A stretch of DNA of 64,000 nucleotides from Candidatus Moraniibacteriota bacterium (lineage in GTDB: Bacteria > Patescibacteriota > Minisyncoccia > Moranbacterales > UBA1568): NCBI GenBank assembly GCA_052034975.1, contig JBPOIA010000003.1, positions 49,251 through 113,250 of the forward strand. The letters run 5' to 3'. Positions 38,408-47,789 of the stretch are shown piece by piece. A program made the translations under genes and the position numbers. The notes beneath the pieces are model-generated. The model saw only the letters and a list, made by a program, of their open reading frames with translations, did no database searches and was not told where the DNA came from. Numbering within the stretch: the stretch's first letter is position 1; each line of letters starts with the position of its first letter.

Positions 38408-39592
38408 ATGTTCGGTTTTGAAAAAGTGCTCGGCAGAAAACCTGAGCAGCGCGCCACAAAAGAAATGACGGGTGGTTTTTCGTCCGCTCCGGTCGCCGAA
38501 AACCCACTCGTTTTTTTTGAACAGCCACTTTCGCTCGGGCAGGCGTGGAAGACGAAAGACGGCCGGTACACGCTTTCTGTGGTTGAGCAGAGAACGAACA
38601 GCGGACGCTTTGAAATCATCCTGAAAGATCGGAATGAAGAAACGACAGAGCGCCAGACCAGGAACAGCGAGGAGATCAAGGCGCTTCTGATGAGCGGCGG
38701 ATATGAGCTCGTTTCATCGGTTCCTGCGTCGAAACAGGCTCACGCACAGGAAACAGCCGCTCCGGTGATGGAAAAAATGCCGGAGACGGCCTTGCAGGAA
38801 CAAGAGGCATCGGAGATTCCGGCGCAAGAAAAGGCGTCGCTTCAGGCTCGTTTTGAGGAATTGGACGGACAGTTCGCTCAGAAGCTCGAAGCCGTGACGG
38901 GAAAGCTCGAAGAGCTCATCAATCTTTTGAATATCGAACGCGATCGGTTGGGAGACGAATTCTATGAATTCGAGAATATGCTTCGTGCCCGGGAGGCGGC
39001 GGTGAATGGATTGATCGAAGAAGATGAGCGTCTCTTGGTGAGTGTCGAAGGGACGGATATCCAGTCGGATGAAATGCGGCATATCGTGGAGCGTCAGGAA
39101 AAGCACATCGCGGCTCTGGAGACTTATACGAAAGAGATCGGAGAAATACAGGAAAAAACGGAGGCGCTTCTTATTGCGCGCGAAAACGTTATTCCGCTCA
39201 AAAAGGAAAAACTTGAGCCGGAAGTGCCGGAGGAGAGCGTTTTGGCAGAGCATTCTGTACCGGAAAAGGATTCGTCTGTGGCAGATGTTTCTTCGGCCGA
39301 TGTCCGGTCAGAAGGAGCAGGGAGCGAAGAGGATTCTGTGGAAACGTTGATCGGTAAGGAACGGTATGCCGCGCTGATGGAATTCGTTTGGACCGCGTGG
39401 AGAATGTTCAAGTCCGATCTCTGGGGAAAGAAAGTGCCAAAAAAGATCTGGGAAAAAATCTGGCAGGAACAAGCGTTGCCAGAAATCAAAAAGAGAGTTT
39501 TCGAGGTTCTTCGTGAACAAGGTATTGGGGCGCCGGAAATACAGGAAGCTGTCTACAATGCGCTTGAACGAACATTGCCGGGGAAGAAATAA
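38408..39592 (+). CDS. Hypothetical protein (coiled-coil core, Trp/Lys-rich C-terminus)
   Basis: No TM. Central heptad-like LQARFEELDGQFAQKLEAVTGKLEELINLLNIERDRL. C-terminus KVPKKIWEKIWQEQALPEIKKRVFE. First gene of the lineage-specific block. Confidence 0.55.
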   Translation: MFGFEKVLGRKPEQRATKEMTGGFSSAPVAENPLVFFEQPLSLGQAWKTKDGRYTLSVVEQRTNSGRFEIILKDRNEETTERQTRNSEEIKALLMSGGYELVSSVPASKQAHAQETAAPVMEKMPETALQEQEASEIPAQEKASLQARFEELDGQFAQKLEAVTGKLEELINLLNIERDRLGDEFYEFENMLRAREAAVNGLIEEDERLLVSVEGTDIQSDEMRHIVERQEKHIAALETYTKEIGEIQEKTEALLIARENVIPLKKEKLEPEVPEESVLAEHSVPEKDSSVADVSSADVRSEGAGSEEDSVETLIGKERYAALMEFVWTAWRMFKSDLWGKKVPKKIWEKIWQEQALPEIKKRVFEVLREQGIGAPEIQEAVYNALERTLPGKK

Positions 39593-39607
39593 AAAAAGAG
39601 TTACCGT

Positions 39608-45308: not shown

Positions 45309-45332
45309 ATCTTTTTCGTCCCGATCGTTTTT

Positions 45333-47789
45333 TTAGGATCCGTTCGTGGTACGGAAAGAAAGGACCGTTTCTGGCGTCAGGACGAAGACTTCGCCAGTTT
45401 TTTCGTTTATAGAAACAGCGAGACCGCTGCCGAACCGTTCCGAGAAGTATTGTGAGAGTATCGTTCCATCCTGGTTCCAGACCACGACACGCTTGTTTTC
45501 TGGATCGAGCACAGAGATGTGTCCGAGTGCTGACTGGACAGAGAGAGATCGTACCTGGAGCGGTGCTGTCGGGGATTCAAGCGTTCCGGTTTCCCGTCCG
45601 CGCGAGAATATCCGCACAGAAGACCGGTCGGTCGAAAGAAAGATGTTTTCGCTGACAGCGAAAGAAGCGGTATCGTCGAGGGAGAGAGAATTTTTTAGCC
45701 AGATGGTTGGCGCTCCAAATCCGCCTTCGGCGCGGGGAAAGCGGTAAATCTGATCGTTTTCGCTGTCGAGGACGTAGAGGTAGGTGAGATAGGTTCCGAT
45801 TGAGCGGATACGGGAATTTTCCGGTAGAGAGAGGTCGTTTCTGACGAATGTCTTGCTAAGAGGGCTCCATGCGAAGAGTCCTCCATCTTCGGTGACGATG
45901 AAGATGAGACGAAGATCCTCCATCGCTGCGGCGAGCAGGGCACGGCGATTATCCGGCAGAGCATAGCGTTTTCCTTCTCTCGGGAAGAAAATGTTTCCGG
46001 AAGAGATAAGGAAGAGATCGTTGTTGAGGATGACGGAAGCCAAGAGGGGTTCGTCTGCGGAGAAAAATTCGGTTATTTCTCCTGTATGTCGGGCATTCTT
46101 CTCGTTTTCGATCGAAAGCGTGGTGACGGCGGGCGATTCTTCCTGTGGTGTTATTGTCGTTTCGTTTTCGGTGATGGAATCGTTCTTAACGAACAAGAAG
46201 AAGAGACCGCTGCAGATGATGAAGAGTCCGATGATGCCGCCGAGGACGATTCTTTTTGAGAGCGGTTCAAGCCGTCCATAGAAGGCGAGGCATCCGTGAC
46301 CGATGGTGCCGACGCTTCTGAGAACGAATCTTGTCCATCGCAAGAGGAAATCACCGGTATGCTTCAGGCCAAAGAGGAATGTCTCGTATGATGAGCGGAG
46401 CGTTTCCGTGAGGGCTTGTCGTGGCGCCGTTGCCGATATTTCGGTTTCCATCGGTTGTTTTGGTGTATTCTTTCGATAAAAAGCTGCCAACCTTTCTTTC
46501 AGGAAAGGAGGAATATCTTCGTTGTCCGGCTGATGATTCGCTTCCGAAGATGCCGAAAAAGCCGGAGATTCAGAAAAAGATTCCTGTCGCAAAGAACCCG
46601 TATGATTTTCTTGTGGCGAAAACGGTCGGATATCAGTCTTTTTTTTCTGGGAGACGCGGTTCTTCCATTGATGACGCAGAGAACGTGCGATAGTCCTGGC
46701 GGCGGACCTGGCTTCTCCGGAAAGGCTTTGCAGCGAAATCGCGCTTTGTTTCCGTGCCTTGCGCAGCCACTTTTTCTGGTTATTGAGGATTCTGCCGGCG
46801 GAAGAAGCCATATCTTGCAGAAGGAGGGACGCGCGTTCCAAAAAAGGATGCGATGCCGGTTCCCCAGGCGTATCTCCTTGGACATAAATATGTCCCGTTT
46901 TGGAATCAACGTATTCGATCGTCTTTTCTGTTGGAAGAGCGGCGGAAGACGGGAGTAAGTGGGCGGTTTCTTTTGGGATGGCCGGTTTGAACGCGGCCTT
47001 GCTGAAAACGTTTTCGATGGCGGAATCGGTCTTCTCAGTTTCTTTTTTTCGGTGAGGTTTTGGAAGAGGGGAAAGTGGTTTTTCAGAGAGATCGACGACG
47101 ATGACTCCCGCCATATCGAGCTCATTTACGATGGCGGTTCTCAGGAATTGCCGAAAACGTTCAGTATCATCCATACGGAGCGCGTTCTTGCGTAGGTCTT
47201 CGGGTGAGAAGAGTCGGAAGATCTCCGGAGAAGCAAGGATGACCTTGTCGTCAGGCAGCAGGCGTCCGCTTGAGATTTCGACGAAGGTCTTGAGCGGATG
47301 AGCGGAAGACTCTTCGGAAGCGAGGCCTTCGGCGATGTCGGAGAGACCCTCGTTTCGCAGCAAGAGAATCTTTCCTTCGCCGGCCGCGGAGAAATGGAAA
47401 TTATTTTTTTCGAACACGCCGATAACGCCATGAAACTTTCCAAGCCAGGCGACGTTGCCATGCTTCACGAGCTCAGCGAGCGCGAGGTTTATTTTGTGGA
47501 GCGCCCCTTCGAAGCTTTCCACGGCGCCGCGTCTCGGATTGATGAAATACTCCTTTTTCGCGACAGAAGCGAGGAAGTTTACGATATAAGCGGAATCTTC
47601 GCTTCGTTCGGAGATCTCAAATACGCCGACGAGCGTTCCGAGGCCGGCTGCCGTGACATTCTCTCCGTTTTGGCGGAATGTCTTGATGTATGGCTCGAAC
47701 GAACGTCCGTTTGCTGCAAGGATTTCAGACACAGAAATTTCGAGCTCAGGAAGCGGTTTGGTTTTTTCCGGGTATCTTTTTTCTGGCAT
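45333..47789 (-). CDS. Hypothetical 818-aa bitopic protein: cytoplasmic N-domain, single TM, extracytoplasmic beta-propeller-like repeats
   Basis: ATG at 47789. TM IVLGGIIGLFIICSGLFFLFV at about aa 520. C-terminal repeats of hydrophobic-strand motifs (LFLISSGNIFF, IFIVTEDGGLFAW, YLYVLDSENDQIYRF, ISVLDPENKRVVVWN, VFVLTPETVLSF). Convergent with, and 24 bp from, the ATPase gene. Confidence 0.6.
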   Translation of the reverse strand: MPEKRYPEKTKPLPELEISVSEILAANGRSFEPYIKTFRQNGENVTAAGLGTLVGVFEISERSEDSAYIVNFLASVAKKEYFINPRRGAVESFEGALHKINLALAELVKHGNVAWLGKFHGVIGVFEKNNFHFSAAGEGKILLLRNEGLSDIAEGLASEESSAHPLKTFVEISSGRLLPDDKVILASPEIFRLFSPEDLRKNALRMDDTERFRQFLRTAIVNELDMAGVIVVDLSEKPLSPLPKPHRKKETEKTDSAIENVFSKAAFKPAIPKETAHLLPSSAALPTEKTIEYVDSKTGHIYVQGDTPGEPASHPFLERASLLLQDMASSAGRILNNQKKWLRKARKQSAISLQSLSGEARSAARTIARSLRHQWKNRVSQKKKTDIRPFSPQENHTGSLRQESFSESPAFSASSEANHQPDNEDIPPFLKERLAAFYRKNTPKQPMETEISATAPRQALTETLRSSYETFLFGLKHTGDFLLRWTRFVLRSVGTIGHGCLAFYGRLEPLSKRIVLGGIIGLFIICSGLFFLFVKNDSITENETTITPQEESPAVTTLSIENEKNARHTGEITEFFSADEPLLASVILNNDLFLISSGNIFFPREGKRYALPDNRRALLAAAMEDLRLIFIVTEDGGLFAWSPLSKTFVRNDLSLPENSRIRSIGTYLTYLYVLDSENDQIYRFPRAEGGFGAPTIWLKNSLSLDDTASFAVSENIFLSTDRSSVRIFSRGRETGTLESPTAPLQVRSLSVQSALGHISVLDPENKRVVVWNQDGTILSQYFSERFGSGLAVSINEKTGEVFVLTPETVLSFRTTNGS

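Follow-up and report, generated by a model that had tools for sequence, protein, structure and literature searches.

A conserved gene module around an orphan VirD4/TrwB-family coupling protein in a Moraniibacteriota genome

Introduction

Why does a CPR symbiont retain a highly conserved conjugation-type motor with no channel genes nearby and with small partner proteins of its own? This question is raised by a block of genes in a Moraniibacteriota genome, which we analysed within a window of 64 kb (the whole stretch of DNA studied here). A survey of 3,035 Patescibacteria genomes found VirB4 systems in 2,417, Paceibacteria included, mostly near dnaA or dnaN, and 5,713 VirD4-like coupling proteins (T4CPs) have been counted in 2,918 genomes, only 148 of them near virB4 (PMC12102498). 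Orphan T4CPs of Patescibacteria have already been reported (Quinonero-Coronel et al., 2025; PMC12102498). In S. epibionticum the T4SS cluster is without a recognisable coupling protein (PMC10633639), and a T4CP homologue, perhaps not of the DUF8128 type, was reported to be non-essential while the T4SS is essential (PMC12102498). Partner proteins encoded beside such a T4CP provide a testable handle on the role of this widespread "orphan" motor.

Results

A preliminary description of the locus counted seven genes, but it listed only six and only six ORFs exist. The coordinates that it gave for these are all exact (Table 1). Each of the six is a real gene; homologues of five occur in many loci, and the closest relative has a homologue of A394 in the corresponding place. 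From A394 to F818 the genes are separated by 15, 24, 11, 11, and 24 nt, so that the gaps first given (4–25 nt in general, 12 nt from one small gene to the other) were close to the 11–24 and 11 nt found. Consensus promoter and terminator scans gave matches at chance level only, and the claim of an operon therefore rests on spacing and synteny only. The idea that the whole block is one unit was not supported: upstream genes are truly co-conserved with the ATPase, but the co-conserved core consists only of B815, C101, D136, and E829. The real unit is a same-strand module of these four genes, and A394 may be a fast-evolving fifth member.

Table 1. Positions in the window of the six genes and of features within their products.
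Feature	Position (nt)	Strand	Residues	Remarks
A394	38408..39592	+		394 aa, acidic (net charge -24), no TM helix
B815	39608..42055	+		815 aa; variable charged N-terminus (1-235), conserved core (235-625), variable C-terminus
B815 Gly/Ala-rich hydrophobic region	40715..40861	+	370-418	IVFTGLMATGAIVSTASGGFAGGALAAVFLTGKRVTGGVAMFAGIELIL; hydropathy 1.64 at 381-399
B815 putative LysM-like motif	41240..41392	+		YEVQKGDSVWKIL... to ...LKAGESFDF; below HMM thresholds
C101	42080..42385	+		101-aa acidic DUF5663 protein; Pfam DUF5663 31.9 bits, cut-off 23.7
D136	42397..42807	+		136-aa acidic protein
E829	42819..45308	+		829 aa; membrane-anchored T4CP, VirD4/TrwB family, DUF8128 subclass
E829 single N-terminal TM helix	42840..42911	+	8-31	hydropathy; AF2 helix residues 6-44
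E829 N-terminal alpha/beta domain	42951..44003	+	about 45-395	Pfam DUF8128 (PF26449)
E829 nucleotide-binding domain	44004..45305	+		inserted all-alpha domain (helices ~504-632)
E829 Walker A	44103-44126	+	429-436	GQTGVGKS
E829 DPHGD motif	44187-44201	+	457-461	
E829 motif block			478-499	VIVFDPADIVRPIGINMLEFDP
E829 Walker B	44856-44882	+	680-688	YLYLDEFQN
F818	45333..47789	-		818-aa single-pass membrane protein, convergent with E829
F818 cytoplasmic PP2C-fold domain	47082..47744	-	16-236	predicted
F818 TM helix	46179..46265	-	509-537	hydropathy 2.65
F818 extracytoplasmic six-bladed NHL beta-propeller	45351..46094	-	566-813	structure

The Pfam model TrwB_AAD_bind matches E829 with 34.4 bits (cut-off 20.5), and DUF87 (27.6) and TraG-D_C (24.6) are also above their cut-offs. 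The best solved relatives found with the E829 family profile are TrwB (9e-9) and DotL (1.8e-6), with FtsK clearly worse. These data bear out the T4CP-like ATPase proposed earlier. The four motifs claimed for it were all found, at the residues listed in Table 1, and its membrane anchor is one N-terminal hydrophobic helix. GQTGVGKS and DPHGD align with GATGTGKS and DPNGD of TrwB, and neither the lysine of Walker A nor the aspartate and glutamate of Walker B vary. FtsK_SpoIIIE reached 12 bits on E829, which is under its cut-off of 24, while the T4CP models were above theirs, and we therefore rejected an FtsK paralogue. Judged by its sequence, E829 is a genuine coupling protein of the VirD4/TrwB family. 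It differs from canonical TrwB (R388), VirD4, and DotL, to which it is ~13–18% identical, in having one TM helix rather than two and in its additional DUF8128 domain, ~350 cytoplasmic residues that separate the anchor from the nucleotide-binding domain.

At 50% identity the E829 family splits into more than 5,800 clusters, and its members are frequent on plasmids, phages, and IMG/VR elements. E829 aligns end to end, DUF8128 N-domain included, with T4CPs from true conjugation clusters of the Gram-positive type, carried by plasmids of Bacillus and Streptomycetaceae, and also with proteins of Bacillus phages. Because of this spread the term lineage-specific, first used for the whole block, does not hold for the ATPase but does hold for A394, B815, and F818. 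With hhalign, the T4CPs of clusters L091 and L092, which by Pfam carry VirB4 (AAA_10), TcpC, PrgI, TrbL-like, and Replic_Relax genes, matched E829 at a probability of 100% over 681–709 columns that include the N-domain. DUF8128-type T4CPs from conjugative plasmids of the monoderms B. subtilis (NZ_CP154917, WP_345805471) and Embleya (NZ_CP108778, WP_331738717) gave hhalign E-values of 1e-55 and 7e-70, and share with E829 the architecture over its full length, with a DUF8128 N-domain and a VirD4-like nucleotide-binding domain that has an all-alpha insertion. The plasmid genes adjoin VirB4, VirB3/PrgI, VirB6-like (TrbL-like), TcpC, and Replic_Relax, whereas E829 has none of these in cis. Also unlike them, E829 is chromosomal and far more conserved, and its CPR-specific partners (DUF5663 and the D136 and B815 families) are absent from the plasmid loci. 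Full-length homologues with ~21–23% identity are gp156 of phage G (Bacillus), gp48 of TP-84 (Geobacillus), and PHROG 5156. E829 matched phrog_5156 at 6.5e-88, the phage homologues were found by tblastn over 85% coverage, and the structural match to a phage homologue was 2e-46 over 844 columns (Foldseek). These proteins differ from E829 in being phage-encoded and without CPR-type partners, and those of Bacillus phages have no T4SS context.

In Moraniibacteriota the E829 gene lies between ftsQ and mraY, among murD, murA, and holB, and this linkage is gone outside the group. It is the most conserved gene of its neighbourhood, with a median identity of 71% versus 60% for RmuC, 47% for MraY, and 44% for HolB over the same 24 loci, and hundreds of genomes carry it as a full-length reading frame. 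As had been noted before, the 64-kb window contains no VirB4, relaxase, or VirB6/8 gene, and none was seen within ~10 kb of the ATPase in those related loci that we inspected.

D136 shows the tightest linkage to the ATPase: tblastn placed it directly upstream in 70 of 80 loci and HMM searches in 64, one of which (L082) has an ATPase with only 42% identity. The N-terminal half of D136 looks disordered and its C-terminal segment (residues 85–135) is conserved, with invariant A103, D113, and D117. D136 has no PDB or Pfam relative and is unrelated to C101, which was detected in 47–48 of the 80 loci; neither has detectable relatives among known adaptors. Among 74 large ORFs immediately upstream of the ATPase, jackhmmer recovered the B815 core in 53. 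Only 22 homologues of B815 were found; all come from Moraniibacteriota or Patescibacteria, and Pfam recognises no domain in any of them. This protein had been described as having two TM helices and a LysM-like motif, neither of which was confirmed. A single stretch (381–399) is above the hydropathy threshold, and it lies inside the Gly/Ala-rich region, which is a possible TM hairpin. Pfam LysM gave no match in B815 or in any of 36 orthologues, and the sole support for this assignment is that the family profile marginally matches LytE in its LysM repeats (E 0.045, with a per-domain E of 1). With LysM under the HMM thresholds, the argument that B815 binds peptidoglycan is not supported.

Linkage of DUF5663, a large protein, and the ATPase recurs in permuted order in two distant loci (L087 and L090, with ATPase identities of 47% and 33%), and one genome (L055) has a second pair of B815-like and DUF5663 genes. 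Beyond Moraniibacteriota the partners change; four loci (L084, L085, L088, and L089) are without DUF5663 and have a different family of ~190 aa instead. A full-text literature search for DUF5663, DUF8128, or PF26449 returned no paper, and the conserved module of B815, C101, D136, and a T4CP looks new.

The two outer genes behave differently. A394, which from its sequence is probably helical or coiled-coil, matches no family, and none of the 80 genome loci contains a homologue. In the closest relative (L117) its homologue is 48% identical at the same position and the ATPase 84%. A394 evolves very fast and its place in the module is uncertain. F818 was modelled by AF2 with a pLDDT of 79. The propeller suggested for it is a six-bladed NHL fold by structure, although neither Pfam propeller (NHL) nor PP2C models match the protein, and the single TM helix was confirmed. 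The canonical PP2C metal-binding motifs are altered. F818 has 329 homologues, all of them without a Pfam domain, and those with a named source belong without exception to Moraniibacteriota or a related group of Patescibacteria. It is downstream of the ATPase in 41–42 of 80 loci, and this adjacency is seen only within the lineage where the whole holB/ftsQ-to-mraY region is syntenic. F818 is probably a neighbour rather than part of the core module; as modelled, it would be a transmembrane sensor-type protein with a PP2C fold and an NHL domain, and not an obvious part of a translocon.

Discussion

The orphan T4CPs of Quinonero-Coronel et al. represent the same phenomenon as E829, being present in nearly all genomes, rarely near virB4, and with no relaxase, and the question of exaptation has been raised for them; the DUF8128 architecture, the DUF5663/D136/B815 neighbourhood, and the unusually strong conservation are not described in that study (PMC12102498). 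The reading that we tentatively favour, at somewhat less than an even chance, is that the four genes form a substrate-recruiting T4CP module of a chromosomal Patescibacterial T4SS encoded elsewhere. The E829 gene would have become chromosomal, vertically inherited, and strongly constrained in Patescibacteria. A membrane-anchored E829 hexamer would then most likely be the ATP-driven substrate receptor of this T4SS, which according to published surveys would typically lie near dnaA. Because this large family has members in ordinary Gram-positive-type conjugation clusters, a chromosomal VirB4 system is a more economical partner than a new translocon. Since there is no relaxase, the cargo is more likely to be protein than a conjugative DNA strand.

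In the Dot/Icm system (DotL with DotM, DotN, IcmS, IcmW, and LvgA) and in TraD–TraM, a T4CP works through small acidic adaptors and a membrane partner. The E829 module appears to share this concept of a T4CP encoded with small acidic proteins and a membrane partner, but C101, D136, and B815 have no sequence or profile similarity to those adaptors. By analogy, the small, acidic, and helical C101 and D136 may be adaptors or chaperones, like IcmS, IcmW, and LvgA on DotL or TraM on TraD, and the large and fast-diverging B815 may be the membrane partner of the T4CP or its cargo. Such adaptor roles are pure analogy, and other points also weigh against a T4SS receptor. The 64 kb analysed from this genome contain no physical or genetic link to a VirB4 system, partners differ beyond Moraniibacteriota, homologues occur in Bacillus phages without T4SS context, and E829 departs from canonical VirD4 in its TM helix and DUF8128 domain. 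In addition, T4CP homologues are more widespread than VirB4 (2,918 versus 2,417 genomes), and the homologue of S. epibionticum was reported as non-essential where the T4SS is essential (PMC12102498).

The preliminary description proposed a translocation system of its own kind. It is conceivable, though unlikely, that a T4CP hexamer joins B815, the small proteins, and perhaps F818 in a VirB4-independent device that transfers DNA or protein across the single membrane and the wall of the CPR cell. Relatives of T4CPs and FtsK are able to translocate DNA alone, an example being TraB of Streptomyces. More than 85 CPR loci all lack a mating-pair-formation gene within ~10 kb, VirB4 is found in fewer genomes than T4CP homologues, E829 shows strong and independent conservation, and the protein that constantly accompanies it is a membrane protein that may carry a wall-binding motif. 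These observations have to be set against the closest non-CPR relatives of E829, which work inside complete T4SS clusters, and against a B815 that has at most a weak hairpin, no detectable channel-like domain, and a LysM call below thresholds. F818 is of a sensor/phosphatase type found in a single lineage only, and the partners are not conserved across Patescibacteria. Somewhat less likely again is a T4CP recruited as a housekeeping motor for a core task of the chromosome, for instance DNA segregation at division or DNA uptake and processing. The position of E829 between ftsQ and mraY, among murD, murA, and holB, its higher conservation than MraY, and its place within the FtsK-HerA superfamily of DNA pumps all fit such a role, but the link from ftsQ to mraY disappears outside Moraniibacteriota and FtsK models score poorly on E829. 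Transcriptome papers on the cultured CPR strain TM7x reportedly mention FtsK, which hints that CPR bacteria have an FtsK of their own. The reported non-essential T4CP homologue of S. epibionticum (PMC12102498) also argues against a housekeeping motor.

A defence ATPase of the HerA, DptH, or Mad8-like type acting against phages or foreign DNA is very unlikely, as nuclease, Sir2, methyltransferase, and Dnd partners are all missing from its surroundings, T4CP models score better on E829, and defence islands are not distributed in this vertical, near-universal, and highly conserved manner. That the family is common on mobile elements might suggest a decaying remnant of an integrated conjugative element, but this is hardly credible when the catalytic residues do not vary, hundreds of genomes keep the full-length frame, local conservation is highest for E829, no integrase or relaxase is found, and the flanks are syntenic housekeeping genes. 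The conservation data effectively refute it.

The neighbouring F818 resembles two kinds of known protein. It shares an NHL domain on the outside with the extracellular sensor of PknD and a PP2C fold on the inside with the membrane PP2C phosphatases PstP, Stp1, and PppA, and differs from all of these in having both modules in one polypeptide, joined by one TM helix.

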